Positions 580-24,670 of a DNA stretch of 32,189 nucleotides are shown here, one piece after another. Numbering within the stretch: the stretch's first letter is position 1; each line of letters begins with the position of its first letter. The notes beneath the pieces are model-generated. The model was not told where the DNA came from, ran no database searches, and was given only the letters and a program-made list of their open reading frames with translations. The position numbers were made by a program, and so were the translations under genes. This DNA is from Octopus sinensis (Eukaryota): NCBI RefSeq assembly GCF_006345805.1, contig NW_021832158.1, positions 1 to 32,189 of the forward strand, written 5' to 3'.

Positions 580-1123
580 GTATAGCTTCACCGCGTATGT
601 ACTAGCATTTTTGCTGGTTATACATTAGCGTCGTATTTATTACGTTCGCTATTTTCCAGTAAATATCGGTACTTCGTTGTACCATATATTTACTTCTATG
701 TATAATTTTCCCTCACGAGCTATTCTTTACTGGAAAGCAATACTCTCGTATTGCATTACTATTTTTTTGAAAACTTCTTCACTGTTCTCGTTCTGTCAGC
801 GTTTGGCGTTTCAGTCGAGTGTATTGGCATTGATGCGGCAGCATTTGAAATGTTGTCGAGGTATATGTTGGCTGATGAAGATAAATCAAGTATATGTGTG
901 CAGACATATCTTGAAAAATCTGAAACCGGTACCACATTATCCCTTCTAGGTATTTCATCTTTCAGATTCTCCCTGGAGGTAAGACAATTTTTTTCAAGTT
1001 TGTTGCACACACGCATTTTTGCTAGTACATACGCGGTGAAGTTATACGTTAGCGTCGTATTTATTACGTTCGCTATTTTCCAGTAAATATCAGTACTTCG
1101 TTGTACCATATATTTACTTCTAT
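580..1123 (+). mobile_element. Hammerhead-containing non-autonomous element with duplicated 3' tail (Penelope pLTR/retrozyme-like)
   Basis: 83-bp direct repeat at 617-699 and 1041-1123 (2 mismatches). 580-607 is an inverted copy of 1020-1047. Hammerhead at 865-937. Ends at (TA)n. Confidence 0.7.
865..937 (+). ncRNA. Type I hammerhead ribozyme, intact core
   Basis: Stem I ATGTTGG/CCACAT (one bulge). CTGATGA at 872-878. Long stem II AGAT/ATCT plus TCAAG/CTTGA and ATATGT/ACATAT. GAAA at 922-925. Palindromic helix III ACCGGT. Cleavage triplet GTA at 929-931. Confidence 0.85.
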
Positions 1124-1142
1124 ATATATATATATATATATA

Positions 1143-1200
<58 letters not shown>

Positions 1201-1213
1201 GTGTGTGTGTGTG
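1121..1213. repeat. (TA)n-(TG)n compound microsatellite
   Basis: Direct reading. Confidence 0.95.
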
Positions 1214-1537
1214 TATAACAATAATGACGGGTTTAGCAACAAGTTCCTTCACCACATACCGAAAATTTAGAAATAGCAGCCACACGACCACTATTTCTTT
1301 TTCCTACAAAATATGTCTCCACAGATAACAATATTTGTAACTCACATAGGTAAAAAGAAGAAAAATAATGAAATCAAACAGTCTTCGATTGATTATGGAC
1401 GCGTTTCTGGATAAGAATTATAAAAATTAATTTCCTTTGTCAACATAATATTTCGAGAATTATAAATTTGGCTGCTATTTCTAAATTTTCGGTATGTGGT
1501 GACGCAACGTGTTGCTAAATCCTTAATTATTGTTATA
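1214..1537 (-). mobile_element. Foldback (MITE-like) element with 68-bp terminal inverted repeats and central hammerhead
   Basis: 1214-1281 (TATAACAATAAT...GAAAATTTAGAAATAGCAGCC) is the reverse complement of 1470-1537 with a few mismatches. Both ends are TA. Confidence 0.85.
1392..1449 (-). ncRNA. Type I hammerhead ribozyme, two core substitutions
   Basis: Minus strand: ATTATG-TTGACAA-A-GGA...TCC-A-GAAAC-GC-GTC-CATAAT. Perfect 6-bp stem I, ACGCGT helix III, GTC triplet. Core is TTGACAA versus CTGACGA. Confidence 0.7.
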
Positions 1538-1569
1538 ATTATATATAAAAAAAACCTTTTTATATGTTT

Positions 1570-1615
1570 TTTTACCGAATATGGTTCTTCTCCATACCGA
1601 AACTACTTGGTAAAA
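1570..1615 (+). ncRNA. Hammerhead relic (core partly deleted)
   Basis: TTTTACC/GGTAAAA stem I, TATGG/CCATA stem II, then GAAACTACTT (AACTAGTT with one change). CTGAT is missing. Confidence 0.45.
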
Positions 1616-1659
1616 TTTATTAATTTATTAAATTAATAATTCTTTACCCTTATCTGTTA

Positions 1660-1725
1660 TGATTATATATATATATATATATATGTATGGTATGTATGTA
1701 TGTATGTATGTATGTATGTATGTAG

Positions 1726-1766
<41 letters not shown>

Positions 1767-1962
1767 GTATATATATATATATATAATATATATAATATAA
1801 TATATATATGTATATATATATATATATATATATTATTATATATATATTTATCATTATGTACGTTTTACGTATGTGTGTATGTATGTGTACATCTATCTAT
1901 CTAACTATCTGTCTAGTAATCTATCTATCTATCTAACTATCTTAATAATATATATAATTATA

Positions 1963-1993
<31 letters not shown>

Positions 1994-2000
1994 ATATGTA
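1660..2000. repeat. Compound (TA)n/(TATG)n/(CTAT)n microsatellite
   Basis: Direct reading. Confidence 0.9.
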
Positions 2001-2512
2001 TAACATATTTAATTTATTAAACGAAAATATTTCAACGTTGTAAGTCATTATATTTTAATAAATTAAATATCCCCGATATAATTAAATATATAATTTGAAA
2101 TATATTTAAAATCATATATTTTAAAGAAAATATATTAGAAATTTGAAAGTAGTGTCAAAATATGAAATATATTGTAATATTATAGAGGCAATGCTGGAAC
2201 TCAAAATTTGGTGCCCCTTCTGTTGTAATACTATGTTTTGCATAGAGATTGCACGTCTTCTCACACGAGGGCAATTCTCTTCTGCATGGTCTTAATCATC
2301 ATGGCTATGTATTCATGAATGTATGTATGCATCATGCGTGCATGTATATTTGTATGTAACTACAGAGAGAGATATACACATACATGTTTGTGTGAGTGTA
2401 TAACACCGTAAAATACCACTTAAGTACTGGTGTTTGTGACAATGTAGGCAATATATGTATGCATTTATGAATGTATATAAATATGCGCGCGCGTATCTAT
2501 TGCTTATATATA

Positions 2513-2544
<32 letters not shown>

Positions 2545-2691
2545 TTGAGTAGTTGAATGATTATCTTATTAAGGATAATTCGAAAGATAACCGATACCTG
2601 GTAGCAAATTCACATCAGAAAGAACACGGTAGAGAATAAACGATATTTTTAACTAGTCCCTCAACTCCATTCTTTCATTATACTTATATAT

Positions 2692-2729
<38 letters not shown>

Positions 2730-2796
2730 TATATATATGTATATATATATATACATATATTAATTTGCCTGTACGGATGATAACTCGCTTGCCACA

Positions 2797-2861
2797 TGTG
2801 ATGGTATTTTAATAATACTATATCTTCTTATAAGAGATGGTATTATTAAAATACCATCACA
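2797..2861. repeat. Near-perfect palindrome/hairpin
   Basis: TGTGATGGTATTTTAATAATAC and GTATTATTAAAATACCATCACA form a perfect 22-bp inverted repeat, and the spacer is itself nearly palindromic. Confidence 0.9.
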
Positions 2862-2879
2862 CGTACACCTTTACTGAGC

Positions 2880-3250
2880 CCCATCTATGATATGTTCCTT
2901 GGCCTTTTAAGGTGTTAGTTTCGTGATGGAACTGATCATATGATTCCACGCAGAGTAGTGTTTCTTCTCTATCATTGGCTATTCGTGATCGGAAACATTA
3001 ACACTCACAAGTCCATTGCTGGTAAATCCTTCTACTTTAGCAGCATTCTGAGGCAGGTCTTGCACGCTGTTTAGAAAAATACTCTGTCAAATTTCTTCTT
3101 CAACTGTCGATGCACTCTCGTACGCTTACCAAGCCACGTTCGCCTTTACCCTTCTTCGTGTACAGTCTATGCACGTTTGCCATAGGGTGGAAGGCACCAT
3201 GCACTGTCATCGTCTTTTGGGTCAATCTCCTCTCGGGTCCATTTCAGTTG
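2880..3250 (-). mobile_element. Decayed R4/Dong-clade LINE fragment (post-RT thumb region)
   Basis: Minus translation TQKTMTVHGAFHPMANVHRLYTKKGKGERGLVSVRECIDS* parallels TRKILTGSRMHHPKSDIERLYIQRIEGGRGL at about 19875-19980. The left boundary is approximate. Confidence 0.8.
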
Positions 3251-4202
3251 AACACTGGGATCGATGCCAAAATTTGAAACCAATATTCTGTATTGATCAA
3301 TTTTCTTTGGTCAGATAAGTTAGTAAGAAATTATGAATATGCTTTATGTATTTGATATTTAATGAAATTTTCTTTTCTAGTAAGTCTTCTTCGAGTATAT
3401 GCTATGTCTATTATCTTTTATCAGTGAAGAATTCATAGTACAGCAACTAATTTAAATTTATCCATAAGCCGTGGTACCTTGCAATTATTAATTCTAGTTT
3501 GTTTTTCTCTCTCTCTTCTTTTAAGAATCCAATCCTAAATGAAATATTCAAAAATGACATTCACATAGTTGGGGTGTGGTCTTATCATAATATTTAAGAT
3601 TAATGGTTATTTTGTGGTGTAAGAGAACTGAATTAAAACTGGGTAGTAACACGAATCCAAGGATTTAGTTTCCAGCCTTAAAAAAAATGATTGAATAGGT
3701 TACTGATCACTGTACAATTTCTTGCAGAATGTGTAAGACATTTTAAATCCTGATAATTGATTTCAAATTTTAATGAGTTAGCGACGGTAACCTATACATG
3801 GTCTTCCGATGTATTAAAAATAGCAACCATCTCCACTCCGCAATTCCATCCGACCATGCTCGCAAAAACAGGAAACAAAAGCAAATGTCCTCAGTGATAG
3901 TCGAAAAGTGAGATGAGTCACGGACGGAATGTTTTTTTTAATCATAAAATGCTCAATTAGGATAACAAGAACACTTCAGAATAATTTTGCTATGAATATA
4001 TAGAACAGAAGTTTCTGTATTAAGAACAACTTTCGAGACAGTTTTATTTTAATATATCATTCTCGATAAAATGATTAACCTTAGGAATAGATTTTCGAGA
4101 AGCTACATCAAATTCTTGTCAGAGTCTTTGTTACGTTTACTTTGGAAACTCTTGCCAAATGTATGTGCGGGTGTGTTTATCATTGAGGCTTACTGCAAAA
4201 TT

Positions 4203-4653
4203 ATTCCTTTCTACAATATGCACAAGGCCTGGAATTTGTTTTGATGGGTGGAGCGGATTATAAGTACCAATTAAGCACTGGGGGAAGGGGCGATTACATC
4301 GCCATCAGTGCTTAACTGGTACTTATTTTATCGACACCGAAAGGATGAAAAGTAAAATCGATCTCGGTGGAATTTGAACATGGAACGTAAAGCCAGAAGA
4401 AATCCCGCAAAGCATTTTGTCTGGTGCGGTAACGATTCTGCTAGCTCGGAACCTGGTAACGATTTCAAATGTCGACACAGTTTTTAAGGGAGGAATAAGT
4501 CGATTACGTTGAGCCCAGTATTCAACTGGTAGTTATTTTATCGACCCCGAAAAGATGAAAGGCAAAGTCAGCCTCGGTGGAATTTGAACTCAAAACGTAA
4601 AAGACTGACGAAATGCTGCTAAGCATTTACCCGGCATGCCAGCTCGTCGCCTC
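4203..4653 (-). mobile_element. Two tandem diverged SINE family A copies
   Basis: Two units (about 4203-4448 and 4460-4653) carry ACTGGTACTTATTTTATCGAC-CCGAAAGGATGAAA...GGAATTTGAAC, as in the 6.1-7.6 kb cluster. Confidence 0.85.
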
Positions 4654-5229
4654 TTTATTAATACATAATATTTAAAAAAAAACAAGAGTCAAAGAAGCCG
4701 AATTAACATGTCAAGCTAAGTTTCTTATGGTAAAGTAACATTTATACGCATCAACTCATAACCATTCATTATTTCTCTTCTATGTATGAGTTTCCGCAGG
4801 CTTTTAAACTATTCTCTGTCACTAGTTTTCCGTCAAATGTTTTATGTACATTTTATTCTTACTTATTTTTAATTTAGTAACCGTTCTTTTTTCTTTAGAC
4901 GATAAAACATAAAAAGGTGATTTATGACACACACCCCTCTCCCAAATTTCCCAATCGTAAAGAAATATATATAAGCCTGTAAACCTTAACGATTTTCCTA
5001 AATCAGAGGTATTAGAAAGTTAAATGGATTCCGCCGAAAATTGAAACTGAATCGTAGACATGGCAAGCCAGAAACGTCTTTTGTACAGTGCTCTCTGCAT
5101 AACGTAGAAATTTATTAGTCAGAAACTTTCACATTCATGTCCATTCACACATATACACTCGCTAACTTGCAAACACATGTACACACACACATATGTATTA
5201 TATATATATATATATATATATTATAATAT

Positions 5230-5280
5230 ATAGAGAAGAGAGAGAGAGATGGATAGAGAAGAGAGAGAGAGAGATAGATA

Positions 5281-5346
<66 letters not shown>

Positions 5347-5404
5347 GGGTAGATAGATATAGATAGATAGATAGATAGATAGACAGAACAGACAGATAGA
5401 TAGC

Positions 5405-5435
<31 letters not shown>

Positions 5436-5462
5436 TAGATAGATAGATAGATAGATAGATAT
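5230..5462. repeat. (GA)n/(GATA)n microsatellite
   Basis: Direct reading. Confidence 0.95.
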
Positions 5463-6086
5463 CAGTGTGTGTGTGTTGCTGATCAGTCTGAGAAAAATGT
5501 TTACAGCCGATATTTTGTAGTGAGGTTTGCGCTAGAATATTAACCCTTAAATCAATCAGACCCCTATGGCTACCACGAGCGGCGTCTTCTAGGTTCCCAC
5601 TTGCTCACTGCAGTATGTCCGAATCAGATGAGAAGAGTAGCTCTCTTCCGACTGTTTAGTTTGCAGTCCCATAAATTATCAGAGACAGCATGTCTCCCGG
5701 ATGTCGTTCGGGTGTTACTGCAGTAAAAACAGTCGTCACTTTTGGCAAGGATACACAAAGAGCCGAACTTCGATCGGAAAGCGACTTCGAAAATAGCATC
5801 ACATGTCTGTTAGACAAAAAAGAAAATGCAGAATAGGAAAAAAAAAAAAAAAGATAAAAAAGATGAAATATTCTAAAACAGATTTTCTTTCATCCCTTTC
5901 GGCCCAATGAAAGGTAATCATTAAAAATATTTGAAACGAACGAATGTTTCTTTATAGTTAGGCCAAATAAAGGAAATGTATTTTTTATGACGTTAATTAA
6001 CAATTTAAAGAAAAAGTATTTACGAAGCTACAGTTAAAGTACAATTTCAAACGCAGCTTACAACAAAGGCCTCGTTTTAGTTAATA

Positions 6087-7575
6087 TTGATTTCAAATTT
6101 TGGCACAAGGCCAGCAGTTTTGAGGCGCAGTTGGTCGGTTACATCGACTCCAGTGCTCAACTGGTACTTATTTCGGCGGCGTTTGAACACAGAACGTAAA
6201 GAAGTGAAATACCTATTTCTTTATTACCCACAAGGGGCTAAATATAGAGGGGACAAACAAGGACAGACATACGTATTAAGTCGATTACATCGACCCTAGT
6301 GCGTAACTGGTACTTAATTTATCGACCCCGAAAGGATGAAAGGCAAAGTTGACCTCGGCGGAATTTGAACTCACAACGTAACGGCAGACGAAATACCGCA
6401 AAGCATTTCGCCCAGCGTGCTAACGTTTCTGCCAGCTCGCCGCCTTCGTTTTAGTAAATAAATTTTAGTAAAGAAGTGAAATACCGCTAGGCTGTTTGCC
6501 AAGCTTGCTAACGATTCTGGCAGCTTGCTGCCTTCATTTTAGTAAATATTCTTTTCTACTCCAGGCACAAGGCCCGAAATGTTGGGGGAGGAAGCCAGTT
6601 GACTATATCGACCCCAGTATGCAACTGGTATTTTATTTGTCGAGCCCGAATGGATGAAAGGCAAAGTTGACCTCGGCGGAATATGAACTCAGAACGTAGC
6701 GGCAGACGAAATATCGCTAAGCATTCGCCCGGTGTGCTAACGTTTCTTATTTTTTATTGCCCACAAGGGGCTACACATAGAGGGGACAAACAAGGACAGA
6801 CAAACGGATTAAGTCGATTACATCGACCCCAGTGCGTAAGTGGTACTTATTTAATCGACCTCGAAAGGATGAAAGACAAAGTCGACCTCGGCGGAATTTG
6901 AACTCAGAACATAAAGACAGACGAAATACCTATTTCTTTACTACCCACAAGGAGCTAAACACAGACAGGACAAACAAGGACAGACAAACGGATTAAGTTG
7001 ATTATATCGACCCCAGTGCGTAACTGGTACTTAATTTATCGAGCCCGAAAGAATGAAAGGCAAAGTCGACCTCGGCGGAATTTGAACTCAGAACGTAACG
7101 GCAGACGAAATACCGCTAAGCATTTCGCCCGGCATCCTAACGGTTCTGCCAGCTCGCCGCCTTCAATTTTAGTAAATATTCTTTTCTACTCAAGGCACAA
7201 GGCCCGAAATTTTGGGATAGGGAGCCAGTCGATTAGATCGACCCAGTACGCAACTGGTACTTTATTTATCGACCCGGAATGGATGAAAGGCAAAGTCGAC
7301 CTCGGCGGAATTTGAACTCAGAACGTAGCGACAGGCGAAATACCTGTTTCTTTATTACTCACAAGGAGCTACACACAGAGGGGACAAACAAGGACAGGCA
7401 AACGGATTAAGTCGATTACATCGACTCCAGAGCTTAACTGGTACTTAATTTATCGACCCCGAAAGGATGAAAAGCAAAGCCGACCTCGGCGGAATTTGAA
7501 CTCACAACGTAGCGGCAGATGAAATACCGCAAAGCATTTCGTCCGGCGTGCTAACATTTCTGCCAGCTCGCTGCT
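6087..7575 (-). mobile_element. Cluster of about 7 tandem/nested SINE family A units
   Basis: On + the units begin at about 6087, 6214, 6547, 6748, 6931, 7177 and 7345. Minus-strand head is AGGCGGCGAGCTGGCAGAA...GAGTTCAAATTCC (B box). Two classes of 3' tail. Confidence 0.92.
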
Positions 7576-7591
7576 TTTGTTTTAATAAATA

Positions 7592-7974
7592 CTAGCAGTA
7601 TCGCCCGGCGTTGCTCGGGTTTGTAAGGGAAATAACTATAAAGCATTTTTAGAGAGTTATAGCCCAAAAATAGCAAAAAAATGGGAAAAAAATGATGGTA
7701 AATTTTTTTGAGAGTTAAAAAGGTCAAGTTGCGTCCCCTAGACAGTCTGTGGTTTGTGTTTCTGATTCTCGACCCCATGTCGAATTTATCGATTTTTTTC
7801 AGAACTGGGGGAACTTTTCAAAATTTTCGCTGCGTTAGTTTTGAATTATGACATTGGGCTATGTGTGTGTCAAGTTTCATCAGAATCGGTTGAAAGCCGT
7901 GGTCAGGGTGAGGGTACAACCTAACAGACGCACAGACACACAGACAGACAAACTGCCGTTAATATATAGAGAGA
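7592..7974 (-). mobile_element. Non-autonomous Helitron
   Basis: Minus strand starts TC(TCTATATATTAA), has an internal (CTGT)n-like tract and ends with the CCCGAGCAACGCCGGG hairpin followed by CTAG. Inserted between A and T with no TSD. Confidence 0.85.
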
Positions 7975-7988
7975 TTAACACTTTAGTT

Positions 7989-8185
7989 AAGGCGGTGAGC
8001 CGGCAGAATCGTTAGCAAGCTTGGCAAAATGCTCAGCTGTATTTCGCTTGTCTTTACGTTCTGTGTTCAAACGCCATCGAGATCAGCTTTGTCTTTCATG
8101 AAATAAGTACCAGCTGGGGTTGATGTAATCGACTTACCCTTACCCCCATATTGCTGGCCTTGTGCCAAAATTTGGGACCAATATT
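7989..8185 (+). mobile_element. SINE family A copy (internally deleted)
   Basis: AAGGCGGTGAGCCGGCAGAATCGTTAGC...GTGTTCAAAC...GGCCTTGTGCCAAAATTTG. Confidence 0.85.
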
Positions 8186-8759
8186 AGCCCTTTTGTTTGA
8201 AGAACATAGATCAGTGGTAAAGATAGTGGTGCGTCGTACTAAAAATCTTTCCGTATTTATTATTGCCTATGTTCTGAGTTTGAATCAAGTGTAGGAAACC
8301 GTTTTGACTTCTGATAGGAAAGACACAGTCAACCGCGACAGAATTTGTACTGTCGGGAAAATGATGATATGTTGAGATTCATGGTTTTTAGTTTTTTTTG
8401 CGTTGTTTTTTGCTTTGTTTTTTTTTTTTTTTAGTTGTTTGTTTGTTTTTTTCCTTGTAAAAATTTATCGAGTCTGACCGAAAGTTAGAACTGAACTCTA
8501 ACTTGAATACCATTAAATATCAAATGGATCATCAACTGTCTCATCAGCCTTACTACTCATTAAACTAACCATCGTTGGACTTCAGACTGAACAGCGACTG
8601 TTTTACATTCGCCAAACTATCATCGAGTGAATGAAAGGCAAGAAGAGCTGCTGATATCAATTCTTTGGTCAGTGATTTTGTTTAGACTGTGATAAAGGCG
8701 CAATAGGTAAGCAACGAGAAGATGGTTTAGCAATGCTTTGTTGTGCAACATAAATCTAG

Positions 8760-8965
8760 GCTGGAGCACCGCCTTTAGTCGAACAGATCGACCCCAGGAC
8801 TTATTCTTTGTAAGCCTAGTACTTATTCTATCGGTCTCTTTTGCCGAACCGCAAAGTTACGGGGACGTAAACACACCAGCATCGGTTGTCAAGCGATGTT
8901 GGGGGGACAAACACAGACACACAAACATATGCACACATACATATATATGTGTGTGTGTGTATGTG

Positions 8966-9004
<39 letters not shown>

Positions 9005-9346
9005 GTGTGCGTATGTGTGTGCGTGTGTGTGTGTGTTTGTGTGGAGCCGCAATGGCCCAGTGGTTAGAGCAGCGGACTCGCGGTCGTAGGGTCGCGGTTT
9101 CGTTTCCTAGACCGGGCGTTGTGAGTGTTTATTGAGCGAAAACACCGAAAGCTCCACGAGACTCCGGGTGGTGACGATCCCTGCAGTACTCTTTCGCCAC
9201 AACTTTCTCTCACTCTTTCTTCTGTTGGCCTGCTCGCTTAGCCAGCGGGGTGGCGTCATTTGAAGGCTAAAACAATGCAAGGCGTATTGTGACCAGCGAT
9301 GTGTAGCAACATCTGATAGCCTGGTCGATAAAGGAAAAGGTAAAGG

Positions 9347-9383
<37 letters not shown>

Positions 9384-9547
9384 ACGACGGACTTTTTTCA
9401 GTTTCCGTCTACCAAATCCACTCACAAGGCTTTAGAAGGCCCGAGGCTATAGTAGAAGACACTTGCCCAAGGTGCCACGCAGTGGGACTGAACCCCGAAC
9501 CATGTGGTTGGTAAGCAAGCTGCTTACCACACAGCCACTTCTACGCC
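8760..9547 (-). mobile_element. tRNA-derived SINE family C with internal microsatellite, interrupted by a family B SINE
   Basis: Closely matches 16420-16777. Head is GTGGCTGTGTGGTAAG...GGTTCAGTCCC followed by CCTTGGGCAAGT (CORE-like). Confidence 0.88.
9040..9330 (+). mobile_element. SINE family B nested in the internal (TG)n of a family C copy
   Basis: GGAGCCGCAATGGCCCAGTGGTTAGAGCAGCGGACTCGCGGTCG, the same head as 1-223. Confidence 0.88.
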
Positions 9548-9629
9548 TATATATACATATATAGACTACATTACGCATGCTAGCCACTGGTATGAAAACT
9601 TTTCTAAATTTTCTACCCTTATTGTTTTC

Positions 9630-9666
9630 ACAGTATATGTATGTAGTATGTATGTATGTATGTATG

Positions 9667-9733
<67 letters not shown>

Positions 9734-9765
9734 TATATATATATTATATACATATATAATATATG

Positions 9766-9799
<34 letters not shown>

Positions 9800-9825
9800 C
9801 AATATATATATATATATATATATAT

Positions 9826-9858
<33 letters not shown>

Positions 9859-9860
9859 AT
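9630..9860. repeat. Compound (TATG)n/(TA)n/(TG)n microsatellite
   Basis: Direct reading. Confidence 0.95.
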
Positions 9861-10389
9861 GAAGGATAACTTACATGAATGTGTCCGCGTTTCTAGAGAA
9901 TTCGAGTTATAAAGAAATCAATGATTTCTAAACCAACACAATCACTGTTTGTTTTATAAATATTATGTGTTTTTATTATTATTATTTTTGCCATTTTTTT
10001 TTTTTTGCCATGAATTCGCTTTCTTTTAAGAATGAAGACTGATACACATCTGTATTTACATTTCGCTATGTCCATCGCTTCAACCCCTTGCCAAATTTTT
10101 TCATGGCCAATCATACAAAAATCTACCTTGTTTTATGGATAACGCATTCTTTTTTCGTTCTCTTTATTTCATTTAGAATATTTTAAAGATGAAGGCTATT
10201 TTTGTTTATGTCACTCAGTACCGCGTGTACACCATCCTCTTTGTATAAAAAGATATACGTTTAAATGTCTCCTATATATAATTCTTTAACGTTCGGTGAG
10301 CATAGACTCCTCCTATTGTGATATAGCTCGTATGATAAGCATGCTATGGATACGGAGAAAGCTTTTCTATCGCTCACTCCGAATTATTT

Positions 10390-10426
10390 TTGTCTCTTCC
10401 TCTTTCTCCCTCTCTCTATCTTGCTT

Positions 10427-10460
<34 letters not shown>

Positions 10461-10465
10461 ATATG

Positions 10466-10498
<33 letters not shown>

Positions 10499-10866
10499 CT
10501 GTGTGTGTATTATAAAATTATAGATATGTATATAAATATATATACATACACACATATATGTGTGCGTGTGTGCGTGTGCGCGTGTGTGTGTATATATGTG
10601 TGTGTATATATATAATGTATAATTGCATGCATGTAAATGTACTTATGTATGTGTGTATACGTGCATGCACGTTGTATGTTTAAATATGTTTATACATACA
10701 ATCGTACGTACATACATGCAGATACATACATACGCAAGACTCGTGCTAACAGTCATACATATATATATTACACACATATACACACACATATATTCATTTA
10801 TACACGAACATTCATATATATGTGTATGCATGTATGTATATTTGTATGCACATATATCTATATAAC

Positions 10867-10933
<67 letters not shown>

Positions 10934-11130
10934 CATATGTATGCATGTATATACATATACATGCATACATATATATGTTTTCATATTTACATACTTATAC
11001 ATGTGTGTGTATATGTGTATGTACGGCTTATACATACATACATTTAACCATACATGCATACGTACATATGTGTATGCATACATACATATATAGATACACA
11101 CATACATACATACATACATACATACATACA

Positions 11131-11160
<30 letters not shown>
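10390..11160. repeat. Degenerate compound microsatellite field
   Basis: (CT)n, (TG)n, (TA)n and (TACA)n tracts. Confidence 0.9.
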
Positions 11161-11161
<1 letters not shown>

Positions 11162-11864
11162 CTCTGTCGCTGAAGGTAGTTGTCCTTAACAAATAGTTTG
11201 GGGCTCAGTGGCGTGAAATAAGTTATCTATCTTTGATTAACGAAGTAACGTTCACGTGGTGCCTTGCAGAATGCTTTATGACTTTCTCGCTGAGACAAAA
11301 ACAATTGTCCTGGATGCCTAAATGGCAAGTGTTCCTACAATATTCTCTATTGAATACAGTTTCTGTCAGCAGTCATAATACAGTTTTATAGTTTAAGACC
11401 ATATTGGCGGCCTCGTTTAGCCATATTAATCTCCATAAATCCTTTAATCATATGTAATATTTTCGGAGGTGTTGGCTGCAAGAATTCATGGATACTTTAG
11501 TGTAGACATCTATTGTGATTTTATGAGGAAAAGCTAAATTTGCTACCCTCCCCATATACTACGTTCTCTTTTCTTTTACTCCTGTTCCCAAAACTCTGTA
11601 GAGAGATTCTTGTGTGAGTTTGCTTAAGGTTCGGTGTGGGGTAAGGAGTTAATTCCTACTTCTGTTGTTTTATATTAAGTTCACTTTATTTTTCATTTCG
11701 TTTCTTTTGTTCTTTTGATTATGCTTATTAAATTTTATTTATTGTATTGTTTTGCTTATAATTTTATTTTGTAATTATATTTAAATTTCCTAAACCGGAA
11801 TATGACAAATAATAAATGATAAATATGATAGATGGATAAATAGATGATTAGCCATATATACTCA

Positions 11865-11936
<72 letters not shown>

Positions 11937-12196
11937 CAGGCACACGCAAATGAGTGCGTGCGTGTGTATGTGTGTGTGTAATATGTAATGGTAAGATCCA
12001 AGGATCAAGGTGTAGGAAGTCAGTAAGCTTCAAGCAGTCCGTAGAAGATATAAAAACAACTTTCAGGAACAATATTTTTTTATCAACTTTGAAGTTCGAT
12101 AAACTGAAATAAGTTATTTTATAGTTTACGGTTAGCAGCAGGGGTTGTATGTATATACATATATAAATCCAAAATTAAGGAATGGAGTAGATAAAA

Positions 12197-12276
12197 TCCA
12201 GACTGCATATGTTTCATAGATAGCAGAACTAGTAATTGCCCAAACAAAGGGTAAACCACGAGCTACTCGTCGGGGC
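12197..12276 (-). ncRNA. Degenerate hammerhead candidate
   Basis: Minus strand: CCGACGA-GTAGC...GCTAT-CTAT-GAAAC-ATATGCA-GTC-TGGA. U4 is changed to C and stem I is weak. Confidence 0.4.
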
Positions 12277-12346
12277 AAAGATACCTTAATCAAATGAAGT
12301 TTACATAGTCGTCAAGGGATCCCTTGTTAACTGTCAGGAGTTTCGG

Positions 12347-12436
<90 letters not shown>

Positions 12437-12523
12437 ACTAATATAGGATAAAAAATTTTTCGGGAAAAAAATGTTATCAATGGCCAGCATATCAAAAAAT
12501 ATCTTTAAAGGTTAAATTTATAA

Positions 12524-12882
12524 ATAATTTACAAGATAAGGGCAAAAGAAAAATTCTAATCCCAAATATGCCGAAAAAAAGACAAAACTTTTCAATAACC
12601 ATTATAATTTATGCGTCCCGAAACAAAGGACTTGGTGTTTGCTTTTTCCATGGGTATGAGTAAGTATTTCACTTATATCTCGCGTATTTGCCGCTGAAGA
12701 GGAGAAAATTTCTTATTAATTAACCCCGAAATTTGGACCAATACGGTAATAACGAATTTTTTAGAATTTTCTATCGGTTTGTTTCGAGACGCATAAATTA
12801 TAATGGTTATTGAAAAGTTTTGTCTTTTTTTTCGGCATATTTGGCATTAGAATTTTTCTTTTGCCCTTATCTTGTAAATTAT
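12524..12882 (+). mobile_element. Foldback (MITE-like) element with about 104-bp terminal inverted repeats and central hammerhead
   Basis: 12524-12627 is the reverse complement of 12778-12882 with about 3 differences. The right end abuts (TA)n. Confidence 0.9.
12683..12754 (+). ncRNA. Type I hammerhead ribozyme, intact core
   Basis: Stem I TTGCCG/CGGTAA, extended by CGT/ACG. CTGAAGA at 12694-12700. Stem II GG/CC. GAAA at 12728-12731. Helix III ATT(TGGACC)AAT. Triplet ATA, with cleavage after 12743. Confidence 0.8.
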
Positions 12883-12894
12883 ATATATATATAT

Positions 12895-13092
12895 AGGGAG
12901 AGTTTACGAAAAAACAAAAGACGAAGATAGGTGGTGTAAAAAACAAACATGTATTAGTATAACGCTCAGGAATAGAAAGAGTCTTTTACGTTTCGAGCCT
13001 ACGCTCTTCTACAGAAAGGGACACAGAAAAAACAATGAGAGAAACAAGGAGAGAAAAAATGTGTCTAGTGGTTAACGATCTATCATGGCGTC
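12895..13092 (-). mobile_element. Short non-coding element between microsatellites carrying a minimal hammerhead
   Basis: About 200 bp of non-microsatellite sequence bounded by (TA)n and (TG)n. Hammerhead at 12983-13018. Confidence 0.65.
12983..13018 (-). ncRNA. Minimal type I hammerhead (Penelope-type), A6 changed to U
   Basis: Minus strand: CTTT-CTGTAGA-A-GAGC-GTAG-GCTC-GAAAC-GTA-AAAG. Confidence 0.65.
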
Positions 13093-13699: not shown

Positions 13700-14260
13700 T
13701 CGTAGTTTCAAATTTGTTTTAGATAATCCTGGTTTATGAAGGAGAAACATACTCTTTGCAAATGTTTACTTCGTCTTCTTTTGCTGTGTTGAAGAGAATT
13801 ACCTGTTCGTATGAAAAGAAATTACAATATGTGAAGTATTCATAAACTGTTTTGATAAAAACAAAAGTGTAGAAATGGATCCGTGTATCCACTTGATGGA
13901 TACTGTCTCAGTAAGAATGTTGTATATAAATGTTCCGTACATGAAATGTTAATGTATATATATTGGGGCTACCTCGAATAAGTTTTATTGCAGAAATTAT
14001 AACCACACCTGCAGCTTTGGGAATAGGAAGAAAGCCAATTTTATATCTTTGGCTAGTTTTCTATGGAAGTTTGCTGGTAAAGAGACTGCATATGAAAATT
14101 GCTTAGTTTATTATATGCAATTCACAACTATATAAAGTTAGTCGATATATGTAATTTGTGTATATCTAATACTTATGAAATAATCAAGTGTAAATCAAAT
14201 CTCATTAACCAACGAGATGAAGTAATAATATAATGTCCACACATGTACCGTACGTCTTCC
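13700..14260 (+). mobile_element. Decayed Penelope-like element, GIY-YIG endonuclease region
   Basis: With frameshifts: KCRNGSVYPLDGYCLSKNVVYKCSV...YIGATSNKFYCRNYNHTCSF...CNLCISNTYEIIKCKSNLINQRDEVII*CPH. This matches the PLE linker Cys motif, GIY-YIG and the C-terminal CxLC...LLNxRxE...CxH pattern. Confidence 0.85.
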
Positions 14261-16365: not shown

Positions 16366-16777
16366 ATACTCTTTACTCTTTTACTCTTTTAGTTGTTTCA
16401 GTCATTTGACTTTGGCCATGCTGGAGCACCGCCTTTAGTCGAGCAAATCGACCCCGGGACTTATTCTTTGTAAGCCCAGTACTTATTCTATCGGTCTGTT
16501 TAGCCGAACCACTAAGTAACGGGGACATAAACACACCAGCATCGGTTGTCAAGCAATGCTAGGGGACAAACACAGACACACAAACACACACACGCATATA
16601 TATATATAATATATATACGACGTGCTTCTTTCAGTTTCCGTCTACCAAATCCACTCACAAGGCTTTGGTCGGCCCAGGGCTATAGCAGAAGACACTTACC
16701 CAAGGTGCCATGCAGTGGGACTGAACCCGGAACCATGTGGCTGGTAGACAAGCTACTTACCACACAGCCACTCCTGC
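16366..16777 (-). mobile_element. Near full-length SINE family C
   Basis: tRNA-like head, internal (TA)/(TG) tract and (AAAGAGT)n-like tail. Matches 8760-9547. Confidence 0.9.
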
Positions 16778-21153: not shown

Positions 21154-21183
<30 letters not shown>

Positions 21184-21184
<1 letters not shown>

Positions 21185-21322
21185 TTCTTTCTACTATAGG
21201 CACAAGGCCAGCAATTGGGGGAGGGTCTAGTCGATTACATCAATCCTATAACTTGAACTTATTTTATCGACTCCAAAAGCATAAAAGGCGAAGTAGACCT
21301 CGGAGGAATTTGAACTCAGAAT
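21184..21322 (-). mobile_element. 5'-truncated SINE family A
   Basis: ATTCTTTCTACTATAGGCACAAGGCC...GACCTCGGAGGAATTTGAACTCAGAA. Confidence 0.85.
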
Positions 21323-22990: not shown

Positions 22991-23142
22991 AAGCAGCGAG
23001 ATGGCAGAATCGTTATCACATCGTACATAGCATTTGTTCTGGCTCTTTACGTCCTAAGTTCAAATTCCGAGATAAACTTCCGCCGAGATAAACTTTACTT
23101 TTCATCCCTTCAGGATCGATGAAATAAAGTGCCAGTCAAGTG
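22991..23142 (+). mobile_element. Diverged SINE family A copy
   Basis: GCGAGATGGCAGAATCGTTA...AGTTCAAATTCCG...TTTCATCCCTTCAGGATCGATGAAATAAAG. Confidence 0.75.
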
Positions 23143-23242: not shown

Positions 23243-23779
23243 TCGAATAAACTTAGAAAATCCCTCTGTTGTGGAATACATTCATAAACACCAACTCAAG
23301 GAATACTGGAGGAATATTCCCATCAAAACTTCTGTCAAATGTAAGCATAACAGACCGGATATTGTTGTTTGGGACAGAGGAACAAAAGTATGTACAATCA
23401 TAGAGGTCAGCTGCCCTGCAGATATAAATATCTCTTTGAAAATCAAAGAAAAAGATGGGATTTCTATGGACAACTGCTTTGAAACCTCCAGCTTCTATAA
23501 CCAGACTATGAATTCATATTCATACCAGTAATAATTGAAGCACTGGTTTTGTTAGTAAATGCTTGAAGGAGGATTCTGGATAAACTGTGATTTTCAGAAA
23601 GAGAAATCGACCAGCTAATTCATACACTACAAGTGCAAATTGTGAGTAGAACAGTAAAAATATGCAATACTTTTCTCAAGTTCCAAATGTGAATTTGTCT
23701 GTGTTAACTACATCCCAAAGATGGAGCCTTGTATCTTTGTTGGAAACCACTCCCTCCTCAGTGGAAGATTTATAATAAT
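23243..23779 (+). mobile_element. R4/Dong-clade LINE 3' fragment (RLE endonuclease plus 3' UTR), third subfamily
   Basis: YWRNIPIKTSVKCKHNRPDIVVWDRGTKVCTIIEVSCPAD...KIKEK...FIPVII. Ends TATAATAAT. Confidence 0.88.
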
Positions 23780-23864: not shown

Positions 23865-24670
23865 ACCAAGCAAAAAGTTGCCACTCGCCTATAGTGGTTA
23901 AAAACGTTTAAACGGTGTCAGTCGTAAGATATTGAACCTCTCCGCTAAATAAAGATGTCTTCAAAGCAGCGGCTCCTCTTATAATGTGACTCTGGCAGCT
24001 AGTGATTTTAACGACATCACTTCTATGCCCAGTCCTGACACCCCAAGTGAAGGTGCCGCCAAAAAGTTAACTGGCTGCTCTCTCGTCAACCTTCTCATAC
24101 ATTGTGAAAATCCGAGTGGGAGAGACCTTCCTTAGATTCGTAGATAAACAATAGGAAAATATTCAACAGACATATCTTAGAGGCTTCGTTCATCTGTGCA
24201 CTCAGTGTCTAAAAAATATTATTACCTCAAAGTCGCGCACAGAAGCAGGATATTTATAAAGAGTTTACAGTGACAGCCCAGTGAATGATCAATGTAATAC
24301 ATATGTCGTGGTCAACGGAGCAGAGATAGTGTCAACCAACACCAATAGAACGACATATACACAGAAATATGGCTAGACTGAATAATCACTGATCCTCTTT
24401 TAAAAGCAAAGAGAGTTAAAATTTTACAACTATAGCTAGCTAATATGGCGATTAAGAGAGTAAACTCACCGTACATCACCTGGAAACTGCAGAAAGATCC
24501 TGGGCCATATTTGAATGTGAGTAGAAGATGCAGGCTCTACTCGGTGGAGAGGAGAATCATTCTAAACAATTCACATGACCCAGGTACTTTCCTAAACTCA
24601 AACAGAGAAATTATCTTTATATTTTGCTAGAATAGTTTCCATTGTTATTCGAAATTCTTCATCCGAATCC
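23865..24670 (+). mobile_element. Decayed Penelope-like element (RT thumb, linker, GIY-YIG)
   Basis: HSPIVVKNV..GVSRKILNLS..KDVFKAAAP; TIGK; SPVNDQCNTYVVVNGAEI; ITWKLQKDPGPYLNVSRRCRLYSVERRIILN...FLNSNREI. Confidence 0.8.

Follow-up and report, generated by a model that had tools for sequence, protein, structure and literature searches.

Penelope-like elements (PLEs) carry minimal type I hammerheads with an extra base between core positions 9 and 10.1, a G10.1-C11.1 pair, a palindromic helix III and, as known from Schistosoma PLEs, a U3-A8 core (PMC4209133). Retrozymes that lack long terminal repeats (non-LTR retrozymes) have been argued to be non-autonomous PLE derivatives (Li, Clavereau and Pollet 2026, bioRxiv 10.64898/2026.07.22.740005). 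For PLEs in general, partial tandems with an inverted 5'-truncated copy have been described, a CX2-5CxxC linker between reverse transcriptase (RT) and endonuclease (EN) defines Neptune-type elements, and Hydra-clade elements are described from few molluscs (PMC8557442). The protein of an anole PLE cuts both strands of AT-rich DNA, its RT starts at two internal RNA sites that bound a "tail", and its hammerhead needed protein to cleave (PMC11167929). Here we analyse a microsatellite-rich contig of 32,189 bases (NW_021832158.1) from the 2.72-Gb genome of Octopus sinensis, the whole of which is referred to as the window. Four short elements in it, A (580-1123), B (from 1214), C (up to 12882) and D (12895-13092), each contain a hammerhead fold.

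The four elements are probably independent insertions made by PLE proteins into TA-rich microsatellites, A, B and C being non-autonomous hammerhead monomers of the non-LTR-retrozyme type and D the 3' stub of an autonomous Neptune-like PLE. Minimal PLE hammerheads, non-LTR retrozymes and their proposed PLE origin are already published, and the system is not new in kind. As far as we could check, two things are new, namely the fixed U at core position 6 (U6) of the D lineage and a strict pattern of one end site per arm in the insertions. The U6 core, the unusual part, was absent from an earlier note on this DNA, made by a model from the sequence alone. The observation made in that note was mostly right, and its interpretation, non-autonomous RNA elements mobilised by PLE machinery, holds for three of the four elements, which belong to a published class.

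The strict descriptor used in this work was a type I hammerhead with a three-helix junction and the core C3 U4 G5 A6 N7 G8 A9 / G12 A13 A14 A15.1 / U16.1 H17. It reported two sites in the window, A and C, and none in any of 25 shuffles. A relaxed descriptor adds the published PLE features (extra base between 9 and 10.1, G10.1-C11.1, palindromic helix III, U3-A8) and leaves position 6 free. It reported exactly four sites, A to D, with predicted cleavage after 931 (+), 1398 (-), 12743 (+) and 12987 (-), whereas 200 dinucleotide block shuffles averaged 0.15 sites and none had more than 2. Since this descriptor was widened after B and D had been inspected, the family data and not the shuffles carry the weight for these two. 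As the earlier note had it, the four elements are unrelated in sequence and each has its own helix III (ACCGGT, ACGCGT, ATT-TGGACC-AAT and ACGT). The conserved CUGANGA core that it assumed for all of them is confined to A and C, which have the type I core in canonical form; in B the core is the known U3-A8 covariant, and in D position 6 is occupied by U. All four are multi-copy, with 1573 (A), 1762 (B), 2291 (C) and 3047 (D) first-look candidates genome-wide. In each family 40 candidates were scored and 30 fetched, and after five twice-fetched loci had been dropped the sets comprised 28, 28, 29 and 30 loci, respectively, window copies included.

Element D and its U6 core

Element D lies on the minus strand and comprises the last 198 nt of an autonomous Neptune-like PLE that has lost its 5' part. 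Its longer copies have 300-420 nt of common upstream sequence, one of which continues to the EN C-terminus, and the longest join an open reading frame (ORF) for RT and EN. Conversely, D is found 0.6-1.0 kb downstream, in the same orientation, in 14 of the 20 loci fetched with the EN C-terminus (13 of 19 without the query locus). Seven parental copies were chosen for their long open frames of 746-975 codons; all seven carry D and a C-x4-C-x2-C linker between RT and EN, and five have the RT motifs (GVAMG, RYIDD) and YIGQ in one frame. In tblastn searches the parental frame matches a 775-aa PLE frame (E 4e-40) and a 781-aa PLE frame (E 5e-37), the latter with Pfam matches to RVT_1 and GIY-YIG, while the 177-aa EN piece of the parent alone has no Pfam match. 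The Neptune clade is assigned by linker motif and domain order only. Nearly all of the 30 D loci have one and the same 3' end. None of them contains a tandem, and with an RT/EN ORF running into it D does not qualify as a non-coding tandem monomer. The description of the elements as non-autonomous thus fits A, B and C, which are closed non-coding monomers, but not D, which is the 3' end of a coding PLE with RT and GIY-YIG domains.

The hammerhead of D (12981-13022, minus strand) consists of the core CUGUAGA at 13014-13008, with U6 at 13011, an extra A, a GAGC/GCUC helix II, GAAA and CG. It aligns base for base with the published consensus CUGANGAH-G...C-GAAA-palindrome-UH except for the U in place of A at position 6; the other ten core bases are canonical. 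U6 is present in 55 of 57 aligned copies and in all seven long-frame copies, whose 28-nt ribozyme differs from that of the window only at positions 7 and/or 17, and the rest of the 198-nt 3' end is 73-81% identical between subfamilies. An exact-pattern count over the genome gave T at position 6 in 16,186 of 16,928 matches and any other base in 742, and the reversed-pattern control gave 0. Counted by eye, position 7 in the first 100 listed U6 matches is T in 52, A in 23, C in 16 and G in 9, and position 6 in the first 100 listed non-U6 matches is C in 66, A in 29 and G in 5. Most of the non-U6 exceptions look like later transitions, and the canonical A6 looks to make up about 1% of all matches. 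We rejected an alternative register of D, with a 2-bp helix II and UAGAAGA or UUGAAGA as the core, in which helix I would not adjoin the core; only in the CUGUNGA register does the freely varying base fall on position 7.

The likeliest reading of this fold is a ribozyme that still works, though at a reduced rate. This has against it that tested hammerheads cleaved less well when position 6 was changed; a natural A6C hammerhead, that of phage Bcep176, is slow in Mg2+ and works in Mn2+ (PMC3088659, PMC7151607). More broadly, and tentatively, at somewhat under an even chance, we propose an autonomous PLE lineage that would run on a hammerhead with U at the otherwise invariant position 6, held by selection across subfamilies 20-25% apart and active through its own protein, a dimer partner or another metal ion that compensates for the lost contact. 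In addition, the two target strands of a PLE insertion would be primed from different fixed RNA sites, one each, and non-coding parasites would have to copy only that two-site signal.

Another view, to which we give roughly one chance in four, is that the hammerhead-shaped motif, above all in its U6 form, does not cleave and owes its conservation to a role as a signal for the PLE protein, in protein binding or RNA folding. Helix II and the loop of D are as invariant across subfamilies as the core, beyond what catalysis alone requires, yet every base occurs at position 7 and G is avoided at position 17, and these are the two positions that are free for catalysis. Likewise, the predicted importance of the A6 contacts and the slowness of A6C hammerheads in Mg2+ (PMC3088659, PMC7151607), as well as the insertion of the anole PLE in vitro without need for cleavage (PMC11167929), fit a signal, but A and C keep canonical cores with covarying helices.

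If the U6 lineage is what we propose, descriptor searches that demand CUGANGA miss such ribozymes, which may then be widespread. A U6 form that cleaves only with the PLE protein would account for the low in vitro activity of PLE hammerheads, and one that never cleaves would mean that the fold has another job. In either case, a natural A6U core that is fixed in at least 16,000 copies offers a direct way to test what purpose PLE hammerheads have. We found no report of a U6 hammerhead variant in the literature searched, which did not cover the main catalogue of PLE hammerhead variants, and no cephalopod hammerhead work by title or abstract start. The term A6U is also absent from PMC7151607.

Monomers A, B and C and the two end sites

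Element A has a short inverted arm (580-607, minus strand), a 96% inverted match to 1020-1047, and a direct arm (619-1123, plus strand) of 1.2 copies of a ~427-nt monomer, in which 617-704 repeats at 1041-1128. Its hammerhead (863-937, plus strand) comprises the core CUGAUGA at 872-878, a long helix II at 879-921, GAAA at 922-925 and the palindromic CCGG. The direct arm ends 192 nt from the cut, at a position referred to as site 1, in (TA)n, and the TA/TG microsatellite at 1124-1213 is where A and B meet tail to tail with their 3' ends. By family comparison, B consists of a hammerhead-bearing arm (1214-1466, minus strand), which ends at site 1 (+184), and an inverted arm (1467-1663, plus strand), which ends at a second site (site 2, about +325) in (TA)n. 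The B hammerhead (1391-1449, minus strand) has the core UUGACAA at 1443-1437, an unpaired A on both sides of helix II, GAAA at 1407-1404 and the palindromic CGCG. Element C has an inverted arm (12434-12626, minus strand; family comparison) that ends at site 2 (+229) in a TG/TA tract, and a direct arm (12627-12882, plus strand) of a ~470-nt non-coding monomer, known from measured periods, that ends at site 1 (+139). Its hammerhead (12688-12749, plus strand) has the core CUGAAGA at 12694-12700, helix II at 12701-12727, GAAA at 12728-12731 and a near-palindromic helix III, and the (TA)n tract at 12883-12894 is common to the 3' ends of C and D, again tail to tail. B and C are therefore head-to-head inverted pairs spanning 1214 to ~1663 and 12434-12882. 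The limits first drawn for them were too short, leaving out 12434-12523 and the second arm of B, and what had been taken for a relic at 1.5-1.7 kb is that second arm.

Direct tandems of A have periods of 422-428 nt in 13 of 14 measured cases (one of 411), and all eight measured C tandems have periods of 468-471 nt. For B a period of 554 nt was found in one locus and a circular permutation in another (L070). The monomer lengths are about 427 (A), 555 (B) and 470 nt (C), and the GC content of monomer slices is 0.38 in A (426 nt), 0.32 in C (470 nt) and 0.31 in B (about 555-576 nt). There is no conserved ORF; the longest ATG frames have 114 (A), 35 (C) and 74 aa (B), and the 114-codon frame of A was rejected as coding, being open in 12 of 22 copies and broken in the other 10 and in an 83% relative. 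Since the periods close and no ORF is conserved, we class A, B and C as closed non-coding monomers, non-LTR-retrozyme-like PLE parasites of a published class. Loci with two same-strand hammerheads one period apart exist for A and C; the 28 B loci contain partial tandems only, with no two-hammerhead direct dimer. Across 40 copies of A, changes in the length of helix III leave it paired or palindromic, and G is never found at position 17, which is either A or C. In B, U3 is present in 27 and A8 in 25 of 29 copies; a possible second core in its upstream part was discarded as a plain hairpin by eye, the descriptor having reported none. Contigs of four runs guessed to be RNA cover 12434-13092 (C and D) and are neutral on expression, as their ends, strand and level could not be read; they reveal no position at which many molecules start or stop, and none of the runs is recorded as RNA.

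In one further locus (L214:805-1437) an element 83% identical to A, with compensatory changes in helix II and a longer palindromic helix III, is fused 5' to a 205-nt inverted copy (98.5%) of a neighbouring D-lineage 3' untranslated region (UTR). The junction could be a template switch, between RNAs or onto adjacent DNA; as one case in about 240 loci it is not counted as evidence.

Element D itself looked non-coding until it was traced 0.9 kb upstream, and A, B and C might in the same way be only the 3' ends (pseudo-LTRs) of autonomous PLEs, locally tandemised and without an independent existence. The candidate loci number in the thousands, of which the sample took in about eight PLE families, and retrozymes are homologous to pseudo-LTRs according to Li et al. 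2026 (bioRxiv 10.64898/2026.07.22.740005). We nevertheless regard this as improbable. Tandem copies re-enter the same 427- or 470-nt unit after the 3' end, for up to 2.6 units and with no ORF between, and the upstream extension shared between copies ends within one period or at the inverted arm; for B this counterpoint rests on the one 554-nt locus and the circular permutation in L070. It is very improbable that B and C are miniature inverted-repeat transposable elements (MITEs), that is, DNA transposons with terminal inverted repeats and an incidental likeness to hammerheads. The window copies do have inverted ends of 70-105 nt and sit in TA, but no fixed terminal inverted repeats are found on all copies: the arms vary in length, have two different end sites and are missing from many copies, and direct tandems of the units exist as well.

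The two end sites are a property of the families. Mapped 3' ends cluster at about +195 and +262 from the cut in A, +142 and +231 in C and +192 and +325 in B, and they run into a microsatellite, mostly of TA type, in 43 of 48 cases for A, 44 of 63 for C (11 of these 63 ends lie at the edge of the reference) and 19 of 30 for B. The tail of 90-190 nt described in the earlier note agrees with the distances from cut to microsatellite in the window (92 nt in D, and those given above for A, B and C), but it is not of one length, since A, B and C have two end sites. A direct and an inverted arm are both present in 48 of the 85 A-C loci. Thirty-five of these two-armed loci have one of each site, 2 have the same site twice and 11 have one arm off-site. 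Against a rough null of even and independent choice the one-of-each pattern has p 1e-8, with ends uncertain by about 10 nt where alignments run into TA. This two-site use is a sharp form of the known PLE "tail". By analogy, we infer the same insertion chemistry as in the anole PLE and, beyond it, that the two strands do not use the same site.

In the mechanism set out next, we infer that the RNAs are cleaved and made circular, that they are mobilised in trans and that priming is strand-specific. A PLE RT/GIY-YIG protein would bind tandem or read-through transcripts in trans. Its EN would nick both strands of AT-rich DNA and its RT would start inside the RNA at either fixed site downstream of the hammerhead, as is known for the anole PLE in vitro. 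Extension of one nick would begin at site 1 and that of the other at site 2, giving the DNA product that is seen, two 5'-truncated head-to-head arms of which only one end bears the "tail". Copies of more than one unit would result where a tandem or circular RNA is read round. Each insertion is seen to end in (TA)n, by which the target is renewed, and the clusters come from later elements that insert into this tract, tail to tail with the earlier ones. Selection would keep the hammerhead for slow cutting of tandem transcripts, as a dimer formed through the palindromic helix III and probably with help from the protein; in the D lineage the fold would be kept with U for A at core position 6.

Family evidence, neighbourhood and candidate mobilisers

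The hammerhead motifs are consensus features of the families in copies of A to D. Conservation was measured as departures from the commonest base at the 11 core bases and elsewhere in 40 (A), 29 (B), 40 (C) and 57 (D) copies. Core and surroundings depart at 1.4 against 5.6% of bases in C and at 3.0 against 6.1% in D, where the core is thus the better kept. Its advantage is marginal in A (2.0 against 3.7%, p 0.09) and absent in B (5.0 against 4.1%), for which only one young subfamily was sampled. In the helices of C, 5 of 15 pairs are changed on both sides among 29 distinct sequences, a level reached in 1 of 500 shuffles; A is weaker, with 2 of 21 pairs among 16 sequences and 20 of 500 shuffles as high. 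Copies of B and D have too little helix variation for this comparison. All four folds are real, each in a multi-copy family, and chance matches in AT-rich DNA can be dismissed for A, C and D, even though the relaxed descriptor was widened to take in B and D and no hammerhead was among the Rfam matches listed, given the shuffle counts, the family consensus, the reversed-pattern control of 0 against 16,186 and the same position of the fold in coding PLEs; for B the dismissal rests on its likeness to the published U3-A8 type.

The conservation figure for B is one of several results that weigh against our account. An Rfam scan of the window, a check proposed in the earlier note, listed 150 of 259 matches at E<=10; no hammerhead family is among those listed, and the top-scoring matches are all microsatellite artefacts. 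Only A folds better than its own shuffles (z -2.74, with +0.77 for B, -0.65 for C and +0.20 for D). Copies are related by descent, so that p values overstate independence and the covariation and conservation figures are to be read as indications. Eight of nine Xenopus retrozyme dimers did not cleave (bioRxiv 10.64898/2026.07.22.740005), and the anole PLE hammerhead was dispensable for insertion in vitro, with no RNA reads ending at the cut (PMC11167929). Finally, when tails were compared with the 3' ends of PLEs, none of the roughly eight families sampled, a small sample, shared terminal sequence with A, B or C.

The hammerhead density of the window is 1 per 8 kb. In the flanks of other A-D copies, 34 hammerheads of other families lie in 332,625 bp (1 per 9.8 kb), and because these densities are equal the window is a typical TA-rich neighbourhood. 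It is about tenfold denser than loci picked by old fossils, which have 1 hammerhead in 91,214 bp. A scan of 236 loci (numbered L001-L253) gave 180 descriptor sites of roughly 30 sequence types by eye, the further types having palindromic helices III of 4, 6, 8 or more nt and, in several cases, U3-A8 or unpaired bases on both sides of helix II. The window also contains a degenerate fifth element with a broken hammerhead (11990-12310, minus strand; core about 12273-12267, GAAA 12215-12212), 68.6% identical over about 150 nt to a better-kept hammerhead repeat in another locus (L078); the relaxed descriptor does not pick it up. In the part consulted of an Octopus vulgaris repeat annotation, 31 recently active Penelope-like families are listed and the word "ribozyme" is absent (PMC13282606).

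Support for a PLE origin of the monomers comes from young autonomous PLEs with similar hammerheads in the same genome, including one with a U3-A8 core. The 781-aa family with RT and GIY-YIG domains, whose seven compared copies are 98.6-100% identical, has a U3-A8 hammerhead about 600 nt past the stop in two fetched loci. Further Neptune-like families are present, as are Hydra-like families with CxCX5C linkers, whose long-helix-II hammerheads resemble that of A in shape. Several young autonomous families were seen in L181-L194 and L245-L251, with open frames of 781, 775, 842 and 787 aa and some copies 99-100% identical, and these are probably still active, as judged from their frames and identity. 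The only match between the sampled PLEs and A, B or C is a reversed B-like piece of 46-66 nt, 350-540 nt past the ORF stop in most copies of a young Hydra-like family (L224-L241). It is probably an old insertion carried along in the 3' UTR, and we rejected it as evidence of a partner on account of its wrong orientation. Two other GIY-YIG matches (L160, L161) we take to resemble exons of a host SLX1-type nuclease rather than PLEs.

The earlier note had placed PLE fossils at 13.7 kb and 23.9 kb and considered them the mobilising elements. Both are real EN remnants, at other positions. The first is an old, frameshifted GIY-YIG remnant of a Hydra-like PLE at 13,856-14,251 (plus strand), for which tblastn gives matches to six open frames found elsewhere in the genome (E 6e-8 to 8e-4) and a hidden Markov model (HMM) gives iE 3e-11. 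The second, at 24,372-24,654 (plus strand), is more decayed, with weak HMM matches in two frames (iE 1e-3 and 0.016) and no tblastn match at E<0.01. Pfam gave 0 families for nine translations of the fossil regions (minus strand only for the 13.9 kb region), and when homologues were sought with a 113-aa protein related to the 13.9 kb fossil, the 15 candidates included none that was significant. A C-terminal EN, a CxCX5C linker and a DKT motif are seen in open-frame relatives (L246-L248); the fossils are of the matching EN type and too decayed to show the motifs. Their closest genomic relatives are 64-83% identical, except for one 38-nt piece at 92%, whereas copies of A, B and C have a median identity of 94-95% to the window copies. 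Since the fossils are far older than these copies, they appear to be old Hydra-like neighbours and not the drivers of A, B and C. For the latter, mobilisation by PLE machinery is instead suggested by partial tandem and inverted insertions of PLE type, by (TA)n targets and by the young PLEs with similar hammerheads; the proposal does not apply to D.

Other repeats of the window include many direct and partial copies of a ~184-nt SINE-like (short interspersed nuclear element) repeat at 4290-4640, 6070-8190, 21180-21320 and 23030-23140, with a two-copy tandem at 6748-7114 and no hammerhead by the descriptor. A ~360-nt repeat is present twice (8760-9542 and 16420-16775, 89-90%), and the copy at 8760-9542 is interrupted at about 8950-9358 by an insert rich in microsatellites. 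A decayed frame (RPDIVV...IIEVSC) at 23301-23460 (plus strand), separate from the 24.4 kb fossil and with 0 Pfam matches, reads to us like the restriction-enzyme-like endonuclease of a non-LTR element, presumably of Dong/R4 likeness.

Comparison with described systems

Elements A, B and C are closest to the animal non-LTR retrozymes (PMC7229834; bioRxiv 10.64898/2026.07.22.740005), with which they share non-coding units of low GC (31-38%) with one type I hammerhead each, dimers and partial multimers, and co-occurrence with PLEs. The published retrozymes have canonical hammerheads, 150-450 bp tandems and abundant circular RNA, whereas A, B and C have units of 427-555 nt, mostly in 1-2.6 units with inverted arms, and minimal PLE-type hammerheads with a long helix II. 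In the parts consulted of these two papers, cephalopods are not covered: PMC7229834 has none, and the invertebrates of the preprint are three insects and an anthozoan. The main gain from the present system is that a further animal lineage joins those with hammerhead-bearing PLE parasites, and that repeats which could easily pass for MITEs or unknowns can be given a label.

The insertion structure resembles that of the Poseidon PLE of Anolis (Frangieh et al. 2024, PMC11167929) in its two internal RT start sites bounding a "tail", its AT-rich target and the cutting and extension of both strands. The Poseidon tails are 30-40 nt long and those found here about 67, 89 and 133 nt, and the end sites here are TA-like, so that short pairing with the target is possible. 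In the Poseidon reactions in vitro the two strands were alike in start site, whereas the two-armed insertions described here use one site each. The one-site-per-arm rule is thus a countable genomic signature of strand priming, which current in vitro work does not explain.

The parent of D is like the Neptune-clade PLEs (Craig et al. 2021, PMC8557442) in its RT, CX4CxxC linker and C-terminal GIY-YIG domain, in a hammerhead near the 3' end, in its (TA)n target and in heavy 5' truncation, and differs from them by the U6 core. With the minimal hammerheads of PLE pseudo-LTRs (Cervera and de la Pena 2014, PMC4209133) the elements share the extra base between 9 and 10.1 and the palindromic helix III, to which D adds G10.1-C11.1 and B the U3-A8 core; those hammerheads, too, occur mostly as single truncated copies in many families per genome. 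In that paper the consensus and the consulted rows of supplementary Fig. S3 have A6, and D has U6. The nearest natural likeness to the D core is the A6C hammerhead of phage Bcep176 (PMC3088659, PMC7151607), which also has a pyrimidine at core position 6. That is a single phage example with C and not U, whereas the U6 of D is fixed across several subfamilies in at least 16,186 copies.

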